Assembly (NCBI GenBank): GCA_046563655.1
Contig: CM102286.1
Span: forward strand, 2,480,001 to 2,544,000
DNA: 64,000 bases
Direction of reading: 5' to 3'
Source of the DNA: Yuukianura sp. NJ FZ-2021
Taxonomy: Eukaryota
Both the position numbers and the translations under genes were made by a program. The notes beneath the pieces were generated by a model. It was not told the DNA's origin, ran no database searches, and was given only the letters and a program-made list of their open reading frames with translations. Shown here piece after piece: positions 2,941 through 52,800 of this stretch (the stretch's first letter is position 1; every line of letters begins with the position of its first letter).

Positions 2941-3604
2941 TTCTTTATTTTTTTCGTGCAAAACAATGAAATCACAAATTGCAAACGTCAAATTTTGTGA
3001 AAAGTTTGGTTTCCTTTGTTGTTCTGAAATCAATTATCAAACTTACAGAATAATTTTTGAAATAAAAAGTGGAAATGGCAAGTCTATGTTTGTTTCGACT
3101 CGATTTCAGAAAATGATGAATCGGCTTTGTGTTTAGACTGTCTTCCGTTTGACACAAATCAAACAGAATGTCTAATGATGATGTACAAGACAGGCTAACT
3201 ATGTTATCAAAAATGAACTAATGTTAAGTTGCTTAGCGTAAATTCGAAAAATTTTCTGTTTGAAAAACTTTCTCCGCAATGAATTTTGGTTACTTGCATT
3301 GTACTCTGTCCAAGAAGCTACGAATTATGGTTGGAATTTGAAAGGTGAGCTATTACGATACCATTATTTGCCTTTTTATATAAGAAGTCTCCAGGAGCAA
3401 CAAAACTCACAACAAACTAAAGAAATCATTAGTCGTTTTACAAATCCCAGAAGAGCTTTGGATTTATGAACTTTTTATGAGATTTTAGGGACTTGCCAGT
3501 TACAAGTTGTAACTGACAGAATTGCAAATTTGACGTGATTGTCAAAAAGGAAAAAACATTTGAAAACAATTTTATGAGACTTTATGTCTATTTTTAGAAG
3601 GCGG

Positions 3605-4192
3605 TTTGGAATTTGGAATTATGTTATTTAAAAAGAGTGATTTTCCTACTAAACTTTTAACGTTTTGGAATTTGGAATTATGTTATTTAAAAAGAGTGAT
3701 TTTCCTACTAAACTTTTAACTTTTTGGAATTTGGAATTATGCTATTTAGAAAGAGTGATTTTCCTACTAAACTTTTAACTTTTTGGAATTTGGAATTATG
3801 CTATTTAGAAAGAGTGATTTTCCTACTAAACTTTTAACTTTTTGGAATTTGGAATTATGCTATTTAGAAAGAGTGATTTTCCTACTAAACTTTTAACTTT
3901 TTGGAATTTGGAATCATGTCATTTAGAAAGAGTGATTTTCCTACTAAACTTTTAACTTTTTGGAATTTGGGATTATGCTATTTAGAAAGAGTGATTTTCC
4001 TACCAAACTTTTAACGTTTTGGAATTTGGAATAATGTTATTTAAAAAGAGTGATTTTCCTACCAAACTTTTAACGTTTTGGAATTTGGAATTATGTTATT
4101 TAAAAAGAGTGATTTTCCTACTAAACTTTTAACTTTTTGGAATTTGGAATTATGTTATTTAAAAAGAGTGATTTTCCTACTAAACTTTTAAC
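3605..4192. repeat. Tandem minisatellite, 59-bp unit x ~10
   Basis: Unit TTTGGAATTTGGAATTATG(T/C)TATTTA(A/G)AAAGAGTGATTTTCCTAC(T/C)AAACTTTTAAC(G/T)T repeated head-to-tail with only a few substitutions and no spacers. Confidence 0.97.
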
Positions 4193-4446: not shown

Positions 4447-5671
4447 ATGGAAAAAATAGGAGCAACTATAAAGTGTGAAGAAAGTTTGGAGCCAGTTGAG
4501 TTGCTCCGATACGGCTTTCCTTATGAAGTCGTCGATGATCCAAACGTCACACCCACAATCCGGGTAAAATCGGATTTCGAAAACGAAAACCCGAAAACAA
4601 ATTTTCAAGAACCTAATTTGTATTTTTGAATTTCCAGTATGACGTTCCCGGCATCAAAGTGAGTCCTGGTAAGTCACTAAAATCAAGAAAAGAAACAGGA
4701 GTTTTTCAAAATTCATTTGTAAAACTTAAAATTTTAAAAATGTAATTTTTTTTTTGTAATTTTGAAGGTTTTCCGGTAGCTCCAACTTTACCAGGCTTGA
4801 CTACTGTTAATGTTGGACCTCAAGATTCTGGATTGAGCAAGAATGAAATGAAGGAAATTTTAAATGCGATTTTGCCGCCAGTTGAATGGACAGAAACAAA
4901 TGAAGAGGAAAAAGAAACGAAATGGCGGAAAGAAGTATGTAAAATCAAAATTCTTACTTTTTTTGGAAAATTTGACAGCAAAATGTTTTTAGATCATGGA
5001 CACTCCAGGAACACGTCATGATGTCACTTCTCTTAACCAAAACTTGACAATGACACTAAAGCAACGGCAGGCACGTGACACTGGGATCTGTCCAATCCGA
5101 AGACAACTGTATTCACAAGTTTTTGGTACGAAATTTCAAATTCAGATTCCAGTAACGGCAGTTTTGTTTTCAAAATTTGTAATTCCAGATGAACTGATTC
5201 GGCAAGTAACAATTAACAACGCCGAAAGAGGTTTGCTTCTGCTGCGGGTTCGAGACGAACTGCGCATGACTCTGGCAGCTTACAAGCGTCTGTTTGAGAA
5301 CGGTTTTGCTTATGGAACACGAAAAGCCAACTTGGTAGCGGACAACTTTGAAGAGCTCCACAAGGAAGTGAATGACATTGCTGATCAGAAAGCATCACTG
5401 GAGACTCAAATGCAAGAACTTCGAATTGCAATTGATCAAGCGGAACGCAAACACTCCGAAACCCGTGAAGTCGATGAGAAGCGAGACAACGAAGAAATTA
5501 CGTTTCTCAAAAGAGCCAATCAACAACTCAAAGTATGCAAAAAAAATCACAAATTTTACTGGACAAAATATTTTTGGATCATTTTTCTAATGCATGTTCA
5601 TACTAATTTTCTTTTTGTCATTTTTTTGTCAGGCCCAGTTGGAAGGAATTCAGGGAGTCAAGAAAAGTTAA
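4447..5671 (+). CDS. DNALI1: Axonemal inner-arm dynein light intermediate chain (p28), 6 exons: 4447-4563, 4638-4668, 4768-4934, 4993-5125, 5189-5532, 5633-5671
   Basis: Diagnostic p28 motifs EILNAILPPxEW, RQARDTGICPIRRQLYSQVFDELIRQVTINNAERGLLLLRVRDELRMT and EEITFLKRANQQLKAQLEGI. GT-AG introns are phase-consistent. Confidence 0.95.
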
Positions 5672-6799
5672 ACAGCCCAATTTTAACTTTGTCTTAAAAA
5701 ACTAACACTTAAAAAAATAATTTTTAAAAAACAAATATTAAAATAAATTAAACGTTTTGAATTTTTTTTTGGTCTTTTGTGACTTTCTAAATTTGTCACG
5801 AAAATGTGAAGCGTTGTAATTATCTAAATTGCTGGCCTCGGAATCAAAAGGATCAAAAATTTTCAGAATTAGTGAGAAGACAAAAACTGGAATGTAATGC
5901 CTACATGCAAAAGCTTTGTTAGAAAAAAATAATTAACAACTCCGGAAATCCAAATGTCAACATACTTTGTAAAGCTGCACTAAATTTTTGCTGTCAATTT
6001 TCGTTTTAACCGACAGGGTATAATTTCCTTTTTTTGCCGTATTCTTTTAAACTTGTGCTTGTTTTGTTTAAATTTGCGTGAATTACATAAAAAAAATTCC
6101 CTTTTGTATTACAGATTGGTGCAATATGTGTGTATTGTTAAAACAAATTTGATTAAGGACTTTTTAAAAGCTGTTGTTATCTCATGGCAGGAAGTGAGCG
6201 TATAAAGTTACACTGAAGTTAGATTAGCATTTGGTTGTCTAAAAATAGTACGTGCATGTGAGAGGTGGGGGAAAGGGCAAAGTGAAAGTGGTTTTACACT
6301 GGATTGTGTCAGAAGAAAGTGAATCGATTTTTATACATACACCGTATTGTGTTGCAGTTTGTAGCATATTCAGCGCCTTTTTCTTAAATTTCTATCAAGA
6401 GAACTTGTACTCCTATGAAAATCTGGTGGCAGGGAAAACCTTTTTTTATCGAAAAGCCTGAGTTAATTTCCTGCTGTGAAAATATTGTTTCTAAACTTCA
6501 CAGTTCAGTGAGAAATTTTCAAAACTGAAATTAAAGAAAAGAGTTAAGAGTTGATTTGAGAACGGAACATGCTGTCAGGTCGAGTTCGGTGAAAGCTGTT
6601 TTCCCAACGCAGGACTTTCACCTTTCGTTGGACACTGTAAGATATTGTAAAGTACTTGAGTTTTTAACTACAGTAATTCAATTAGTAACTTTTATGTTAA
6701 AAGTTTAATTTTAATTTTATGTTAAAATTTTTGAAATTTTTGAATGTTTTCTTTTAGAAAGTTGAACTTTGAACTAAACTGTGAAACGAGTTGATCAAG

Positions 6800-33100: not shown

Positions 33101-35417
33101 TAACACTGACGAATTATATTAACTTTGTAGAAAAACTTACAATCTCTGGCGTCACTTTTTAGATTTTTTTTTGCCGTGTTTTAATAATTTTTATAAAAGT
33201 TTATTCTTTTTTTGGTATTAGAAAAGCTACGGATTAAGCAATACAAAAGTAAAACAACTGTTAAAAAATTTTGAGTTTTTAAAGGTTTTTGGAAAAACGG
33301 ATTTTGGATTTAAGTTTTAGAATTTTGAAGAAATCCAGTAGCATTTCAGCCTGCCATGTGACACAGATAATGAAGCTCCGAAACACGTTTGCAAATAAAG
33401 TGAAAGTATTACCACGAAAATGGAATTACTTTTTGGAAAAATTCACTTCCGTGGAGGAACTGCGTTGTTTCTAGTAAATTATTCTAATTAAAATCCAAGG
33501 GAATGCGGATCTAAAGGGACGAAGAGCGTTCGCTGCCACTCCAGAAAGAAAATGGAAATTTCGAAATTCGCGCTTTGTCTTGATAAATGGTGTTTAAAGA
33601 TTCATTGGGCGCTTGGAATAGGCAAGAGTCATAACTCAGACTTAAGAATTTTGCAATCTCCGACATTCCTTCATGAATTTGTTCCGCTTCATTCTTCCTT
33701 TTCTAACTAACATTTTTAAGTTTAACTAAAACGTTAACGTGTAAGCTTATAATTTTGATCTACAAAAATACAAAATTTAAATTTTTAAAATCTGACGGGA
33801 ATCAATTTTGGCTCTTTTATGAAACCTCACCAATATTCTGCAATCTTTAACTAACTAGACTAAAAATTTACTCATACTTGTCCTTGCATTTTAAATTTCT
33901 TTTTGAACAAAAGTCAATATTTTGAATCTTATTTTTGAAGTGACCTGCGTGTTGTGAAGAATTCAAAATGTTTTGTTCATCTAAGTAGCATCTGAGCCTT
34001 GATTAAAAATTAGAACGTTTAGTAATCTCCCTTTGAATTTTTTACAGTTTAATTTCAAAATCTAAACACGGCTTGGTGTAAAATGCAAAACACTACCAAC
34101 GCATGGAAGGAAAAATTTAAAACTACAAAGCGAGGTGTAATTTGACTTAATGGAAGACAGATATGTTCAAAAACAGCAGCGTCGCAGTTTCTGCCTCTCT
34201 CGACAAAATTGCTTACTTCGTATACTTTTTTTTTAAATTTGAAGCCTTTGCCTGCTCTCGTTACGGTGTAAAAGGAAAGTTAATTTTTAATCCAAAAGTC
34301 TCCTGGAAGGGGAATCATCACCCACAGGCGGCACACGAAACAAAAGACTTTCTCCAGAGTGTGTTTAGATTGTAGAAAGTGCTTTTTAGCAGATGGGCTA
34401 AACCTAACGTAACTTAAAACCTACTTTTAACGAAAGTCACCGTACAACCTAACGTACAAAACGTACTTTATGGCCCATTGCATTATAAACACTCACATTC
34501 ATCTCGATTTTACAGTGGAAGTCCTAAGAACCTACACGCTGAAAGTAGTTTCTGTTCAAATATGACCCGAGCGACGCTGCTTCTGCGAAAAAAAATTTTA
34601 GCCTAACCCAATCTAATGTTTCCCGAGACGTTTCAACCTGACTGAGAAGCTTCTCTAAAGTTTGGTTAGTAAGGTTATTTTTTAAATGAAAGACTTACAA
34701 CTCAAAAAAAGAAGTTTGTAAAGTTTAGAATGAAGTGGAACGTGTTCTAAAACCACAAACGTCCCTGAACAATTCATGTCCCAACTTTTAAGTGCTAATT
34801 AAATTCAGAGGGAAAATTTAAAATAAGTTTCTGCCCTGCTGAATCCAAATTTGGTTCAATTTGAATGTACCTTGGAGGCCATTTTCTGTGTCACATAAAA
34901 AAAGCTTCACCCAAAAAGTTTTTCCAAAGACAATTTCCGTTTCCTCTACAAACCATTTTCAAAAGAAGAAAGCTAAAGAAAAAGCTGGAAAAAAATATTT
35001 TTAAAATGCAAATTGAATTACATGATGCACTTTTTTCAAAACCGGCAAAAAGTAAACCAACTTGATTTTTTTTGAAAAGAAACCTTTGCCATGTTTTTAA
35101 AACGCATTTTGTCAAAGAAAGAAAACGTCATTAATTTTGGAAATTGTGTTTACCCGTTTTTTTTTCTTTCCAGAGGTTGGTTGGCAAACTTTTTTGAAAT
35201 TTTTGATGACTTAGCAGGGACACTTTAATAAAAAAAAAAGTTTTGCAATGGAGAGCTTCATCTTGAGAATAGAAAACTGAACAAATCCAATTACCGTGCT
35301 ATTTTTCTTATAATGCTATTCTGTTCAAAACTTTCCCGCGAAAAGTTTTTCGAAAATTTCTTTGTCCCGAAACTTTTTCAAAAAAATGTCGCCAGACTAG
35401 TTTTTTTGAGAATTAGG

Positions 35418-35729
35418 TTATATACATGACTCTAGTAATTGGGTAGGGCTTAGAGTCGACTCTGTAAGTAAAACTGTTGTTGTTGTCGTCGGTATTGTGT
35501 GAACTATCGGTTGATGTTGAACTTGGACCGATTTGGTGGTAGTGGGCGTGGCTAAGTCCGGTACGGCTTGTTGCAGTATCACAGCCGTTTCGCGGTGACT
35601 AGTGCTGATTTCACGCAAGAAGATCAGTCCCGGTTCGGGGTCAGTGTCAAGGTCACGAGTGATTTCGGCTTCAGTGGCTCCTTGGACACAGGTCGGTTCA
35701 GGTACACGTGACTTTGGAGACAGTTCTGA
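35418..35729 (-). other. Candidate stop-codon readthrough extension of SPR (103 codons + TAA)
   Basis: The frame stays open after the TGA: SELSPKSRVPEPTCVQGATEAEITRDLDTDPEPGLIFLREISTSHRETAVILQQ...LLESCI*. Coding-like GC content collapses right after the second stop. Confidence 0.6.
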
Positions 35730-36914
35730 TCAAAGGACAGTTTCATTAGTAGCAAGCGTCCTTGGGCCATTGACGAGCGAGTACCGGTTTGAACCGTCCC
35801 GCCGACTCGCACTGCCTTTGACAAACATATCTTTAAAAGTTTCACGAAACTGGCGCGACATTCCACAATAAATGGCAAAGTTTATAGGATAAGTGAGGAT
35901 AATAATGAAATTTGAAAATAGGATGAACACATTGGCAAACTTGTAGTCTAGAAATTCCGTCACGGTAGAACTAATGATGTGCAGTACCGTGACAATGGCC
36001 AGAGGAATTTCAACAATTAAAAACACCGACACTACAACAATTAGCATCATTGTTGTGCAATTGGAGTCCCGCATTTTCTTGCATTCGTTTGACTTTTTGT
36101 TGTCTTTAAACAGTAAGTCCCGTTTGCGTTGAGCTTCCCGTAGAGCCCGGAATAGTAACAAGTTGAGGCCAATGAGGGCGCCACACGGGACCGTATGAAC
36201 AAACAACACACGAAACCAGTAGTAAATGTTAAAGTAAACGTCGGGTGTTAGAATATGTTCCACCCAATATGCAAGTTCCGATTTACAAACAACGTAGTGT
36301 TGACTTTCCCAAAAGATGTTACAGGGAACATAAACTCTGTCGAAGAAGCGGGTGGACTGATGGAGTGCTGCAGAGACGAAGATCCAGAAGATTCCTTTGA
36401 GTACCCGCGGCATTGTGCACCAAGTTCTGGCTACTGGGGCATGACAGACATAGATGTAGCGCTGGACGGCAAGGGCCAAAGTAAGCCAAATCGATGCCGT
36501 ATGGAACAAATTTGGAATGACTTCGTTCATCATGTTCCAAGCATAGCAGGCTGACAGGGGATAAAACGGTTTGACATGATTTCCAAAAGTGTACATGTAG
36601 AAGTGCCATGGAGCTGAGAAGAGGACTGTAAACATGTCAGCCAAGGCCATGGCCAGAAGGACGGAGTTGGTGGGAGTGCGCATGTGCCGTTTGGACAAAA
36701 CGATGACCACAAGAGTGTTGGCTACTAAAGTGATGACGCAGAGGAAGGGCATGATGTAACCGTAGAGTGGAACGGCATATTCAATAGGAAATTCGGTTGA
36801 AATGTTGAGGAATCGCATTTGATAGGCTGTTCCGTTTTCGTCAATGTGAGTACAATTGTCCCAGTCGTTGTCCCCAAACGGGACGAAAAGATCGTGGCCA
36901 TCCTCCATGTCCAT
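35730..36914 (-). CDS. SPR: Sex peptide receptor / myoinhibitory peptide (allatostatin-B) receptor, class A GPCR, single coding exon
   Basis: Seven TM segments with SPR-typical strings PLYGYIMPFL, ANTLVVIVLSKRHMRTPTN, FHTASIWLTLALAVQRYIYVCH, RDSNCTT, YPINFAIYCGMSRQFRETFK, and C-terminus RYSLVNGPRT..NETVL. First ATG is at 36914 with an in-frame stop upstream; a splice acceptor lies at ~36948. Confidence 0.96.
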   Translation of the reverse strand: MDMEDGHDLFVPFGDNDWDNCTHIDENGTAYQMRFLNISTEFPIEYAVPLYGYIMPFLCVITLVANTLVVIVLSKRHMRTPTNSVLLAMALADMFTVLFSAPWHFYMYTFGNHVKPFYPLSACYAWNMMNEVIPNLFHTASIWLTLALAVQRYIYVCHAPVARTWCTMPRVLKGIFWIFVSAALHQSTRFFDRVYVPCNIFWESQHYVVCKSELAYWVEHILTPDVYFNIYYWFRVLFVHTVPCGALIGLNLLLFRALREAQRKRDLLFKDNKKSNECKKMRDSNCTTMMLIVVVSVFLIVEIPLAIVTVLHIISSTVTEFLDYKFANVFILFSNFIIILTYPINFAIYCGMSRQFRETFKDMFVKGSASRRDGSNRYSLVNGPRTLATNETVL

Positions 36915-37442
36915 TTTGAAGTCCAATTACTGGATGGCTGTGCTAATCTATTCGAAAAATTCAAAAATTTGGAATCAGAAAATTAGTAACAATTTTTTCT
37001 TGAATTTCGAAGGTTGATGTGACATTCACCGCTGAATTTCAAAACTTAATTAAAAAAAACATCGTGACTAGAATTTTGAGAGCAAAATTAGCACCGCCAA
37101 TTTCAAAAATAGTACAAGCAAAGGCATCATTTTCAAAACCGTTTTGACGAAGTTTTAAAAACAGCAGCTTATGAATTTAAAAACGTAATACTTAATTCCC
37201 GCATTTCCGCGTACCCACATTCCTCTAATGTCGAAGTGGCAGATAAAAATCTTCCCTCTGTTTCTGGTTTTCACTTTTAGCAATTTCACTTTCATCTTTT
37301 TTTAATGTAGTTCATTTAAAGTGTCGCGTTTTGGTTTGTTTGTAGCAGTTTGGCTAGTTAGGGTAGTATTGTGCTATGTTTTCGTTTGTTGGGTTGGTTA
37401 GGGTTTTGTTATGTCTTTGAATAGATGCTGGAACAGGACAAC

Positions 37443-44433: not shown

Positions 44434-45855
44434 ATGCTGGATTTGGCCAACAGTGTTTGGGTTTTTGCTGTTGGTCTAAATTTGATTTTTGGCGGAATGG
44501 TGAGTTAGAAAATACAAATAAAATAGTTTTCCTCCTTGTCAAATTTTTTGGCCAATCCTGTGAATACAAGTTCGTCATTATTGAAGATTTGCAATGCTGC
44601 TGACCGTGAAGGAACTGAAATTCCGCTTGGCGGTAATGGTTTCATTACGCGGAGGGGCGGCGAAGATACTGATACTTTCATAGATGAAAACGGACTTATA
44701 AGGTGGTCAGAGATGGAAACCATAGTCAGCGTCTATTTCAAATTTGCAACTCCCCAAGTATTTCAAGTGGCCCTTAAGGTCAAACCCTATGAACTAAGTA
44801 AGATACAAGTGACCATAGGGGCCAAACAAGTTTATACAACAATCAAGGGCAGTAAACCGTACACCAAATCTGTCGGGACTTTTGTTGTTCCCAAAGGTTA
44901 TGTCAAGGTAGACCTTCAAGGGATTTCCAAAACTGGCTACTACTACGCAGACGTAGAAGCCTTGGTCCTCTACAACGTCACTGGCAAAATATTTTACATA
45001 AAGGACAAATCGGATTTTGAATTTGGCAGACGTGGACCCAGCGTCCATATGAACTACAGACCAAAAACGACGAAACCCATTGAATATTTTTACAATGAGG
45101 TTTTTGTACCCAAAGATCAAGATATTTACGGTTGTTACTTCATGGTGGCAGGATTCTCTGATGGCTACTTTGGATTCCAGCGTACAGAACCAGATTACAA
45201 GAGAATACTGTTCTCCATTTGGTCAGATGCTGCAACCGATGACCCCTCCAAGGTCAAAGAAGAAAATCGCGTCAGACTTTTAAAAAAAGGACCAAACGTT
45301 CAACTTGAAGATTTTGGAAGTGAGGGATCTGGAAGAAAAACTAGTTTGAAATATGACTGGAAAACGGAAACGAAATATGAATTTTTGGTTTTTGGCGCTC
45401 CATCGCCAGATGGAATGGGAACAAACTATACTGGGTGGTTCAAGGCTAAGAGAGATACGAAGTGGCATCTCATTGCGAGTTTCATGAAACCAAAAATATC
45501 TCATAATTTGGAAGATATTTACTCTTTTTCTGAAAATTTCATTCCAGAACAGGGTTACATTCCGAGAAAAGTTCAATTTGGGAATCAATGGGTGAGAACA
45601 TCGGATGGCAACTGGCATGAAGTGACCAAGGCACTGTTTACGGGCGATGCAACGCCAAAGAATGGCCGAGAAGATTATGCTGGTGGAATGACCTCGGATT
45701 CTAGAATGTTTTTCCTTATGAATATTGGATTTTTCAATGAGAAAGTTGACACTGACCAAGAATTCACAAGGCTAAAGGGACATAAACGACCAAAGGTCAC
45801 CATATCTGAGTTGCCCAAATTTTCCCAAAATTTTACCAGTTTTAGAAATTCTTAG
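44434..45855 (+). CDS. Secreted DUF5077 + DUF3472 domain protein of bacterial (Bacteroidetes-like) type; exons 44434-44499 and 44587-45855
   Basis: Exon 1 is MLDLANSVWVFAVGLNLIFGGM|gtgagt, followed by an 87-nt phase-0 intron and one long exon. That exon carries motifs I recall from the bacterial family: PLGGNGF, GYVKVDLQG, FGRRGPSVH, EYFYNEV, YFMVAGFSDGYFGFQ, RILFSIWS, FGSEGSG, WHLIASF, YSFSENF, FGNQW, FTGDAT, DYAGG. Confidence 0.85.
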
Positions 45856-48677: not shown

Positions 48678-49876
48678 TTCAATTCAATTCAATTCAATTC
48701 AATTTATTTGATATTGGCCTTTTGCCCTATCAAATTACAATCCTGCAGCTCGTTTAAGTTAAATAATAAGTAAGATAATCAGTAAAATACGTAATAATAA
48801 GAAAGGAGCTTAGCGTAGTGAAACATGTCAAATAGTCACAAAGCATGAAAGTGGAATTATAATGATAATGAGTCAAATTTGAATGAAAATTGTGGTAGGG
48901 TTTTATCTACGGGTAATTGAGGTGTCCCAGGGATCCTGGTTCCTTTGTCTTCCCGGTTTATCGCTCCAGGGTTGGCTCGAACATTGACAGAACTGTGTGG
49001 TTCATATTTTGAAGGTTTTTGACAAAGTTGATCTCGGTGGCGTGTGCATTGGCCCAGCTAATCGGACATTGGTACAGCGGGATGTGCAATTGGTTTCTGT
49101 GTGTAGTAGTCTGAGGGCAGGTCCATAGAGCATGGTAGTATGATAGTTGGTCCCCACAGAAACTGCAGAACTTTTCCTTGAACTGGCCGAGATCGAGCCA
49201 TTTTCGGTTGTGGTAAATCTGGTTCATGTTCAGTCGGATCTGCATAACTGTTCTGGTCAGGTAGGCTGGGAACCGTTTGGATAATAATTCCTTCGCCGGG
49301 AATTCATCCGCAATGGTTGAGTAGTGAGGAATGGAACTGGACTGCGATGCACTTCTTTTATCTGTTTCGCGGTAGAAATTCGCAAGGTTCTTAAGTATTG
49401 TTTTGGTTTTTGCTCTGATGTCATTTAAGTTTCCATCGTCGTAGGAGCCCTCTTCCCCAATTTGAGCAAGGGCAGCTCTAAGCTGTAGACACCAACTGTA
49501 TTTTTGGTCAGGATGGAGAAGCGAGACTTTCCTTAGTTGTAAATATGCGTTTTTTGTGAGGTCAGAGCAAGATTTGGAGTAGAATTTTGTGAACAAGTGC
49601 CAGGCTCTTTTGACTATTTCGAATTCTAAAGGAAGAGATTCGGTTTCCAGCCGTATGAAGTATCTAGGAGTAGTGAACGGTAAGTGGAAGACTCGTTTGT
49701 AGTAGCTTTGTTGGACCGTTTCTACGGTATTAGAGTGGAGCAGACCCCAGGTTTCACAGTTGTATAAGGATGTTGATGAAACAAGTGAGTATAGTAGCCT
49801 CTTAACCGTCCATAGGTCAATGTAAGCAGATTTCTTAAGTAAGCTAAAAACTGCTCCTTGTGCTGAAATTCCTTTC
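48678..49876 (-). mobile_element. 5'-truncated non-LTR retrotransposon (LINE): ORF2 C-terminus, 3'UTR, (ATTGA)n tail, 13-bp TSD
   Basis: Uninterrupted ORF to stop at 48958 with post-RT motifs LYNCETWG, PRYFIRLET, QIRL and a CCHC finger (CSFCG..HALWTCP). The tail is AATAAA(TTGAA)n at 48678-48708. AAAAATATTTTTA is duplicated at 48665-48677 and 49877-49889. Clade not firmly assigned. Confidence 0.92.
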
Positions 49877-52800
49877 AAAAATATTTTTAAAAAATCGGTT
49901 TTCGACAAACAAAATTGCTCAGTGGAAAAACAAAACAAAAAATTTCAAGTAGCAAATTTGAGATCTGAAGGTTTTTGTCAATGCTTTTACCAAATAGTTC
50001 TCTAAAATTGTCGTTTTTTAGTATTGGTTTAGTGCATTTAAAGCACTTTAGTGCAAAAGGCTCTCGTTTGGTAGTTTTTTATACCTACAGTTTTAATTTT
50101 TGAATGTTTTTGAATATGAAAGTAAAGTGGGCACCGGATGTTTTAAATGACTTTCTTATTGTCCAATTTGGAACGAACACAGAATATTAATTACAGCAAT
50201 TAAGAAAACAAATCTGAGCACGAGTTTTTGAGTAAAAATAGGAAATACCAAGTGCAAAGTACGTTTGAAATAATGAGTAAAAAGTATTCTGGAACACGAA
50301 AAGAACAATGCAAATATTTTTCAATGTTTATTTATTTTCGAAAATTAGTTTGTAGAATGTGGAAATTAAACTCAAATTCAAAATAACTTTTAATTGATCG
50401 TTGACATCAATTTTTGACTTTATGACTCCCACTTTTACTTAAAAATAAGGTGACTCAATGCTAAAGGCTGTTGAACGGCCTTGACCTTTTACATTATCAA
50501 AATTAATTTTCGCATGTTTTTGTTGTTGCACCTTTCATGCTTTTCTCCTTGTAGAAACTGTTACAGTATGCAAGTGCTAGTATTGTTTTAGGTGAGGAAA
50601 ATTCTTGTAACTTTCTCCAACAGCATTTTGGTGAAAGCGTGGGCAAGAACAAGTACAGATATCAAATTAAAAAGTGTCGAAAACAAACCCCTGAATGGAA
50701 GCCGTTGAGTGGAGAAGTTGTGGAACGGTGAAGTAACAGACGAAGTGAAAAGTTGAATAAATTATCATGGAGTTTTAACTGAATGTTTTTACCCTTGAAA
50801 TTCAAAATTTGTTAACTGAGCCTAATTTTATAATTTTTGTTTGTGGATTTTCGCCTTACTTGTATCCTATTTCGACTTACCTGCTTCTTATTTATTGTTT
50901 TCGACAAAATGTTCCACAACACTAACCTGCCTGACGTTGACGTGTTTTGCTTATTGTTTTTCCATCTTCTGCGTAGCAATGCGCAGAATTTAGGCTCGAG
51001 TGAGAGCGTGAAATTGCCAGGTTCAGCGTAGTAAAAGCGCCAGTGGAAAGTGACTTTGAATTGAATTACAAAAGTGTCACCTTGATGGGTGGAGTAATTT
51101 CTAATTAATTTCCCTAGTGAAGGGAAGTTCAGAGAGGCACAGGAGGCGTCTGGTCCTAATTAAGCAGATGGAACTTAATTACACTCTGCACAGGGGAGCT
51201 GTATAAGGACAGCAGTGGTGCAATTCGGACTTGTTAGGCTAAAACCTTACGGTTAGGCTAAAAACCTAAAGCTTAGGTTGTGGAAATGAAAGTACGGAAA
51301 ACCACATATCCGTCCTTCACTCAATCCTAACTGGCTACTTCTGTTACAAAATTTAACCTAAATTTCTAAAGCTTCTAATGTTTTTAGACAAAATTTTCCA
51401 TTTTCCAATTAAAACTAGAGGCGTTGGAATGTAAGCGTTGGAAAGTAAGCAAAATTAATCTCATTTCAAAATATTTGTTTGATCTTTCCCTCAGACTCTA
51501 ATTGATCTTTGCCACTTAAATCCAACGCAGAAGGAATATAGAATTAGACCTATCGATTCCTAAAGTTCACCTTATCCTGTTTCAGCTGAAGTTTAGCCTT
51601 ACAATGTTAGGTTTACGTTAGGTTTGTTAGGTTGGAGTACGAAATGTTGGTGGTGGTGACACTTGGGCTGGAAGGGATTTCGGATTTAGGAGAGCGATGA
51701 TTGTGAGGGTTAGAAAATCTTGGAGCTTCCAGGAAATGAAGTGCCAATTTGTTCCAAAAATCTAGTCGCTGCGTCTCCAATGCAAGACAAGACCAGTTTA
51801 CTGAGAGAAAATTGAAAGTTCAAATTTTACCGCCAGAATTCTTGCCCGTGTTTGCAAAAAACGGGAGAAACACCGAGGAATGAAAGACTCGAACGGGAAC
51901 GGTATACTTTCGTTTTGGAATTTTGGAATTTTGGAATTTTTCGACACATAAGTAGATTTTTTTGCGATTTTTAGCAAAACAGGGCTTTCACCTTCAAAAA
52001 ATTTATAACATCATGATTTCTACGCGAACAATTTTAAATTTGACGCCAATTTCTTTTTTCTTTTTTTTTTTTCCACATTTTTACAAAATTCCGACCCAGT
52101 TCTCGCCAAATCACAAAATTGTTGACAGCATTTTTTGATTTGTGAAATGGGCGAACCGCGAACATGAGGCAATCTTCAAAGTCTCCCGAGTCTTGTTTAA
52201 AGACAAAAACGGTTTTCAGTTGCCGAAAGCGAGAAGCGCGCGAAAATTTGAAAATGTAGCAGATTTTGATTTCTGTTGCTGATTCAACGTCCTCAGCGTG
52301 TTGTTGATCCTGATTGAGAACTCCGGAGACATCATATTTCAGCTTCAGAGATTCCGTGTTTGTGAGGCCGTGAAAAGACACACTGGATTTGATTTTTCAG
52401 TTCACGTCCGATCACTTCCTTTAGTCGTCTTACTTCCCACGGCTTCCCTCCATCTTCAAAATCAAAATCGCTCAACCAAAACTCCAGCCAAATGTGTCCC
52501 AAGTCGTGCTCGACACCGCCTCCAATGCTGCAGAATTCAAATGCTGGCGGTCGTTTGGGACTTCATCCCTGGAAAAGTAACTTTCAAGTGCGAAATAGAT
52601 GAACAATTTGTCCAAAAAAAAGCGGCTTCAGCAGAATGCTATTTTAGTAGTTTTTGGATTGAAACTTTACAAGAGAAAATTGAAGTGGAGAAAGAGAATT
52701 GAATTTTGAGAGAGAAAGTTTGGTGCAAGATGGAAAACGTGTGAATAAGATAGCTACGGAAAAGACTAGAAAAGATTAGAGTCATTTCGAAAGACTTAAA

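Follow-up and report, generated by a model that had tools for sequence, protein, structure and literature searches.

A comparative candidate for stop codon readthrough in the sex peptide receptor gene of Yuukianura sp. NJ FZ-2021

Can a receptor gene that ends where its homologues end also be translated beyond its stop codon? This question is raised by a gene for the sex peptide/myoinhibitory peptide (MIP) receptor, SPR, in a stretch of 64,000 nucleotides (nt) of DNA from Yuukianura sp. NJ FZ-2021 (GenBank assembly GCA_046563655.1, contig CM102286.1, positions 2,480,001 to 2,544,000 of the forward strand), which we call the window and whose numbering we use throughout. The coding sequence ends in a UGA stop codon, beyond which the same frame stays open for another 103 codons, and a preliminary description of the window had proposed this stop as a candidate for readthrough, with two receptor isoforms made from one exon. 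We compared the region with two related metagenome contigs, L001 and L002; the open frames in both, and frame-specific conservation of the protein in L001, support this proposal. From sequence comparison, the locus appears to be a well-supported readthrough candidate, the gene and the lineage both being new and the stop codon context atypical.

The receptor gene and its first stop codon

The gene and its first stop are placed as follows.

35733..36914, minus strand: coding sequence of the sex peptide/MIP receptor, 394 amino acids in a single exon, ending NETVL; identified from Pfam matches and homologue identity.
35730..35732, minus strand: first stop codon TGA, followed by TCA (UGA-U), the proposed readthrough site; kept in L001 and L002.

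The receptor lies in a stop-to-stop frame of 398 codons (36926..35733, minus strand) with a methionine at 36914, and its product matches the Pfam families 7TM_GPCR_Srw (E 9.7e-24) and 7tm_1 (E 3.7e-17). It is 59–87% identical to the 14 top matches, many of which are named sex peptide receptor by their sources, and 54–87% identical to fourteen homologues whose sequences were retrieved, and the nearest named homologues among the matches listed come from Folsomia candida and Orchesella. Judged by these similarities, the gene is an arthropod sex peptide/MIP receptor, a class A G protein-coupled receptor (GPCR). In insects, this receptor governs post-mating behaviour, sleep and feeding circuits.

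The C-terminus of the receptor reads ...GPRTLATNETVL, which includes TLATNETVL, and the TGA at 35732..35730 comes next. The homologue set consisted of the best 120 of 547 proteins with E ≤ 0.001. The C-terminus NETVL ranks with the receptor's best-conserved features: among these 120 listed homologues, 92 end in NETVL, 7 in NETIL and 4 in NETVI, in agreement with the preliminary description, which had treated NETVL as the conserved end of the receptor. Because NETVL ends 92 of the 120, we place the first stop at the ancestral C-terminus. The stop codon is also not an assembly error, since contigs from two sequencing runs carry it: the contig of run X2 (35402-35939) has 7 differences from the window, all listed and none at the TGA, and the contig of run X4 (35696-35852), which is labelled as another organism, agrees with the window throughout (0 differences), TGA included.

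In a quick maximum-likelihood tree built from 46 SPR proteins, the window receptor grouped with those of L001 and P0002, with a value of 100 in the Shimodaira–Hasegawa-like approximate likelihood ratio test (SH-aLRT). This trio was nested in a clade of nine sequences (SH-aLRT 96), the sole named members of which are from the springtails Folsomia candida and Orchesella, and which also holds L002, P0004, P0005 and P0039. On the basis of this single-gene tree, we place the window receptor with the springtails (Collembola). Two database models elsewhere in the family have unusual structures. The Ixodes persulcatus model P0003 (664 amino acids) resembles two SPR copies fused in tandem, and in the Oedothorax SPR model P0024 the final ~60 residues are repeated; in both cases we suspect artefacts of gene modelling or tandem duplicates.

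The frame beyond the stop and its conservation

The features that follow the first stop are these.

35421..35729, minus strand: in-frame extension of 103 codons without an ATG, with Ser, Thr and Pro abundant; an open frame, with similarity to L001 in this frame alone.
35616..35642, minus strand: conserved block DPEPGLIFL, extension codons 30-38; residues identical in L001.
35577..35591, minus strand: conserved block ETAVI, extension codons 47-51; residues identical in L001.
35421..35447, minus strand: conserved new C-terminus PTQLLESCI, extension codons 95-103; DNA match with L001.
35418..35420, minus strand: second stop codon TAA, site of a fall in G+C content; L001 has a TAA at the homologous place.
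35224..35229, minus strand: ATTAAA, the first polyadenylation-type hexamer past the first stop, ~190 nt beyond the TAA; a motif match alone.

The arrangement from which the proposal had started, NETVL-TGA followed by 103 in-frame sense codons and a TAA at 35418, was confirmed on the minus strand. The coding-like composition of the extension, with AT-rich sequence after it, was likewise borne out: G+C content is 0.41 over the final 400 nt of the coding sequence, rises to 0.495 in the extension and drops to 0.31 in the 400 nt past the TAA, and the fall coincides with the TAA at 35420..35418. The extension had also been described as rich in Ser, Thr, Pro and Glu, and we found that Ser, Thr and Pro together make up 0.37 of its residues and Asp and Glu 0.13. 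Neither AATAAA nor ATTAAA occurs within the window's extension. Mononucleotide shuffles of the extension stayed open in 213 and 257 of 20000 cases in two runs (analytic probability 0.013), and each of the other five frames across it holds 4-8 stops. The open frame in the window is therefore unusual by chance but not decisive alone; it is the relatives that make the case decisive.

Searches of predicted proteins gave 0 matches to residues 385-502 of the read-through product, and 0 matches to the L002 extension. An exhaustive HMMER search with the 103 residues returned 2 matches, both in long proteins (3017 and 2663 amino acids, one with 15 matched stretches), which we took as low-complexity and set aside. 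The SPR model P0121 from Drosophila gunungcola (488 amino acids) does not end at NETVL but goes on with Tyr and 53 further residues, as though a sense codon stood in place of the stop. This tail may be an artefact of annotation or assembly, or a hint of an open post-stop region in some Drosophila.

Relatives were sought among metagenome contigs, and of the best 80 of 207 of them, L001 and L002 alone within the springtail-like clade reach the 3' end of the gene. L001 encodes a receptor 86% identical to that of the window (coding sequence 768-1925) and reads NETVL-TGA-TCA, then 99 open codons to a TAA; L002 encodes a receptor 72% identical (coding sequence 3001-4143) and reads NETVL-TGA-TCA, then 182 open codons to a TGA. 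Thus neither a stop nor a net frameshift, either of which would have spoken against the proposal, interrupts the orthologous region in these relatives. In contrast, the controls L009-L011, which belong to another lineage (67-68% identical), read NETVL-TAA and stay open in frame for just 3 codons beyond it. The coding sequences of L001 and L002, like that of the window (36914-35733), have no introns, and several other metagenome relatives match residues 19-152 or 152-394 alone, as if split by an intron at 152. A scan of genome contigs for further relatives gave one irrelevant bacterial match, and a degenerate NETVL-TGA-TCA pattern had 14 matches in viral contigs, of which 0 of 14 encoded a receptor tail.

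The frame of L001 stayed open in 795 of 20000 shuffles (~0.04) and that of L002 in 1 of 20000. The other five frames over the three extensions contain 1-16 stops, and L001 has one nearly open frame (1 stop). Synonymous sites in the receptor coding sequence are saturated, with proportions of synonymous differences of 0.85 between the window and L001 and 0.84 between the window and L002. For this reason the ratio of nonsynonymous to synonymous rates is not estimable; neutral sequence should have retained neither similarity nor frame over such distances, and the three open frames are therefore near-independent under a non-coding model. Multiplied together, the three chance values come to ~1e-8, which is rough arithmetic.

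The extensions of the window and L001 can be compared residue by residue. Between them, 34 of 95 aligned residues are identical in a protein alignment with gaps of 3, 1, 5 and 3 codons, and they share SE directly after the stop, DPEPGLIFL, ETAVI and the end PTQLLESCI-TAA. Apart from SE, the first 29-32 post-stop codons are poorly conserved. The local BLOSUM62 score between the two in the receptor frame was 97, compared with 33.7±6.0 when the residues of L001 were shuffled (0 of 2000 shuffles reached 97), and the other eight frame pairs scored 21-51. Only 12 of the 34 identical residues use the same codon, compared with 147 of 336 in the receptor coding sequence, and of the 22 nucleotide differences at identical residues 21 are at the third codon position, 1 at the first and 0 at the second. 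Within the conserved blocks, 7 of 9 codons of DPEPGLIFL and 4 of 5 codons of ETAVI differ from L001, all of them synonymously. At the DNA level, the 900 nt past the stop of the window and L001 were compared without regard to frame, and a single match reached significance; it covers the final 32 nt of the extension, TAA included (E 3.7e-7). Its 4 mismatches all fall at third codon positions, leaving the nine-residue block PTQLLESCI-TAA identical in L001; this block contains the new end ESCI that the preliminary description had predicted. Past the TAA, the 3' flanks of the window and L001 gave no significant DNA match (E 0.34 or worse).

The third-position pattern and the specificity for one frame fit selection between the window and L001 on amino acids in the receptor frame, up to a shared stop, and do not fit a conserved RNA or DNA element. 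The competing explanation is that the extension is untranslated, the open frames having arisen by chance in G+C-rich 3' untranslated regions and the shared blocks being conserved RNA or regulatory elements. In its favor, an open frame by chance is only moderately improbable for the window (~0.013) and L001 (~0.04), the latter has its second, nearly open frame, 5 of the 9 listed polymorphisms in the extension are nonsynonymous (see below), and the stop context is not of the classic leaky type. However, the frame of L002 would rarely stay open by chance, the three cases are near-independent, and of nine frame pairs a single one carries the similarity. Nor would 21 of 22 differences be expected at third positions if the blocks were a conserved RNA element, and the extensions of the window and L001 terminate at the same conserved block and stop. 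We therefore regard an untranslated extension as quite improbable, and, as far as comparison of three sequences can tell, the extension is very probably translated in the receptor's frame.

Variation within the species was examined by aligning contigs of four DNA runs on 34400-37400; a further 77 substitutions and 9 indels lie beyond those listed, to which the following counts refer. In the receptor coding sequence, 14 of 14 listed substitutions are synonymous and at third positions. In the extension, 4 are synonymous and 5 nonsynonymous, the latter all conservative (T>S, V>I, E>D, T>I, S>T), and the one listed change inside DPEPGLIFL (35637) is synonymous, CCC>CCG. Listed indels occur at 34965-34989, 35351, 35380 and 35401, and from 36954 onward, with none listed in 35402-36953; this lack of listed indels is only suggestive. 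In the contigs of runs X1 and X2, 148 nt of the flank past the extension (35169..35318) are replaced by 403 other letters, and several short segments from other long contigs likewise align to the flank at 34891-35387, which suggests that this AT-rich flank holds a repeat or insertion polymorphism.

How the stop might be passed

The sequence TGA-TCA is identical in the window, L001 and L002, whereas the Val and Leu codons before it vary at their third positions. This suggests constraint on the stop context, although three sequences give such a comparison little power. The context is UGA-UCAG in the window and L001 and UGA-UCAU in L002, and the base after the window's stop is T, as the preliminary description had it (UGA-U).

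A conserved UGA could be decoded as selenocysteine, and the start of the conserved blocks ~30 codons past the stop could also be explained if the extension were the last coding exon of a different transcript or a frame with its own start. UGA does encode selenocysteine, and it is conserved in all three species. Nevertheless, no match to the selenocysteine insertion sequence (SECIS) family was found at E up to 10 in window positions 33800-36000, which take in 1.6 kb past the extension, or over the full length of L001 and L002, and on this result selenocysteine decoding was rejected. The extensions of the window and L001 contain no ATG, which makes separate initiation unlikely, and the extension abuts the receptor in frame, with no intervening stop, in three species. 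We consider this group of explanations very improbable.

The stop might instead be bypassed in the RNA, either by alternative splicing, with a donor in the receptor tail and an acceptor in the extension, or by A-to-I editing of UGA to UGG; in both cases the extension would be translated. The comparative data show selection in the frame and not how the stop is passed, and the poorly conserved first 29-32 codons, save for SE, could hence be intronic. Against such a bypass, no in-frame pair of a GT donor (at least 7/9) and a YAG acceptor at least 40 nt apart spans the stop in the window, L001 or L002, the frame is open from the first post-stop codon in all three, and TGA-TCA is invariant. A 13-nt GT...AG segment across the stop, GTCCTTTGATCAG, was rejected as an intron, being far too short and out of frame. 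Editing requires a duplex at the stop, but the region folds no better than shuffled sequence, and the three species share no common pairing. Bypass in the RNA thus seems unlikely to us, whether by splicing or by editing.

RNA structure was also considered as a stimulus for readthrough, which it accompanies in a minority of known cases. The preliminary description had pointed to a possible stem shortly after the stop, and an inverted repeat is indeed present.

35648..35716, minus strand: inverted repeat with arms at 35704-35716 and 35648-35660, each 13 nt, 85% complementary and 43 nt apart; no support as a signal.

This repeat begins 13 nt past the stop codon. However, the fold of the 146 nt around and downstream of the stop is no more stable than that of shuffled sequence (z 0.06 in the window, 1.70 in L001 and -0.21 in L002), and the repeat has no counterpart in L001 or L002. 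Thus, while the repeat itself stands, we rejected its role as a readthrough signal.

Since the checks for a separate start, selenocysteine and splicing gave no support to those routes, readthrough by a near-cognate tRNA is the simplest way past the stop, and we consider translational readthrough the likely route on present sequence evidence. Under this mechanism, most ribosomes would terminate at the UGA after NETVL, and a minority would decode it with a near-cognate tRNA, for which Trp, Cys or Arg would be the expected residue at UGA, and continue for 103 codons to the UAA at 35418. The outcome would be a second, longer receptor isoform from one intronless gene.

Several observations weigh against this interpretation. 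The +4 base is U in all three sequences and not the classic leaky C, which is typical of readthrough genes but not obligatory, and the +5 base is C and not A. No stem is conserved after the stop, L001 having 0 inverted pairs and L002 an unrelated one. The extension of L002 is not recognisably homologous to the other two, its score being reached by 332 of 2000 shuffles in comparison with the window and by 878 of 2000 in comparison with L001; what L002 contributes is the openness of its frame alone (182 codons), and its end reads ...KEEYF. AATAAA occurs inside the extensions of L001 (1) and L002 (2), where it might allow early polyadenylation. The G+C content of third codon positions is 0.42 in the extension, compared with 0.53 in the coding sequence, and variation within the species shows constraint to be much weaker in the extension than in the receptor core. 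Finally, the post-stop comparison covers three species, which is a small sample.

Known readthrough systems, the surrounding window and meaning for the receptor

Published work describes readthrough as abundant both in insects and in the single crustacean that was tested (PMC5100048). The same source gives 353 readthrough stops found in Anopheles gambiae and estimates of at least 600 in A. gambiae and at least 900 in D. melanogaster (PMC5100048). A C at +4 is enriched in insect readthrough genes (PMC5100048, PMC13278127), an A at +5 is reported for readthrough genes in a 2026 preprint (PMC13278127), and the latter lists a UGA stop, raised G+C content and a disorder-type extension as signatures of programmed readthrough in insects (PMC13278127). 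Drosophila readthrough extensions are portrayed as disordered modules, rich in motifs, which are likened to alternative exons and are conserved only at low taxonomic levels (Pancsa et al. 2016, PMC4999894). In mammals, the UGA codons of the opioid-family receptors OPRL1 and OPRK1 are read through at UGA-CUAG, with evidence from reporters and immunoblots (Loughran et al. 2014, PMC4132726).

The window case is like the readthrough genes of Drosophila and Anopheles (Jungreis et al., PMC5100048, PMC13278127) in its pancrustacean host and conserved UGA first stop, in a coding signature that fills the interval between the first two in-frame stops, and in the raised G+C content, the fast-evolving, disorder-type extension and the neuronal/cell-surface receptor class of the gene. 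It differs from them in having U and not C at +4, no conserved structure after the stop and a host outside the insects proper, probably among the Collembola, and in the kind of evidence, which is a three-species comparison here and PhyloCSF on genome alignments, ribosome profiling or reporters there. With OPRL1 and OPRK1 (PMC4132726) it shares a class A neuropeptide GPCR, a UGA stop and recognition through post-stop conservation; unlike them, it has no UGA-CUAG, its extension is unrelated to theirs, and it is known from sequence alone. The Ser/Thr/Pro-rich composition, with short conserved islands in a divergent background, is similar to that of the extensions described in PMC4999894, as is conservation at a low taxonomic level, given that the window and L001 share motifs that L002 does not have.

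Our literature searches found nothing linking the sex peptide receptor with readthrough, no GPCR readthrough extensions in Drosophila, no PDZ role of the SPR tail and nothing joining readthrough with a PDZ-binding extension. A search for stop codon readthrough and Collembola returned one unrelated mitogenome paper alone. SPR, 'sex peptide', CG16752 and FBgn0029768 do not appear in the one searchable supplement of PMC5100048.

Three other open frames were noted in the window.

4993-5697, plus strand: open frame that encodes an axonemal dynein light chain domain (PF10211, E 9.8e-51) and probably represents exons of a neighbouring gene.
44527-45855, plus strand: 442-codon open frame with the Pfam domains DUF5077 (E 6e-28) and DUF3472 (E 3.3e-87).
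48958-49944, minus strand: 328-codon open frame, no Pfam match at E ≤ 0.01.

DUF5077 and DUF3472 are mainly bacterial domains, and their presence in an uninterrupted frame in an arthropod window may reflect horizontal gene transfer.

For the receptor itself, the longer isoform would bury the ETVL end and expose the new end LLESCI. It would also gain a Ser/Thr/Pro-rich tail, probably disordered, that would carry DPEPGLIFL and ETAVI. The class I PDZ-ligand pattern consists of S/T-x-hydrophobic at a free C-terminus, and both the end of NETVL (T-V-L) and the predicted new end (S-C-I) fit it. The exchange of one end for the other may affect scaffolding, trafficking or desensitisation of the receptor. 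It is conceivable, although we hold it to be doubtful, that the locus represents an old, springtail-wide switch at an invariant UGA-UCA, by which the ETVL docking motif is swapped for LLESCI, or for another end in the lineage of L002. If this were true, one intronless gene would give two receptors differing in scaffolding or trafficking, and an end that has been kept from chelicerates to flies would be exchanged. With neither a C at +4 nor a structure after the stop, such a switch would depend on a stimulator not yet described, either a signal in the sequence or a trans-acting factor.

Annotation of springtail genomes would overlook the long isoform. A UGA-U case without structure would be useful for finding drivers of readthrough besides UGA-C, and would widen the comparative evidence for programmed readthrough to hexapods of an early-branching lineage. 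A conserved readthrough isoform that masks NETVL and presents a different conserved end would give this receptor a simple form of two-variant signalling.

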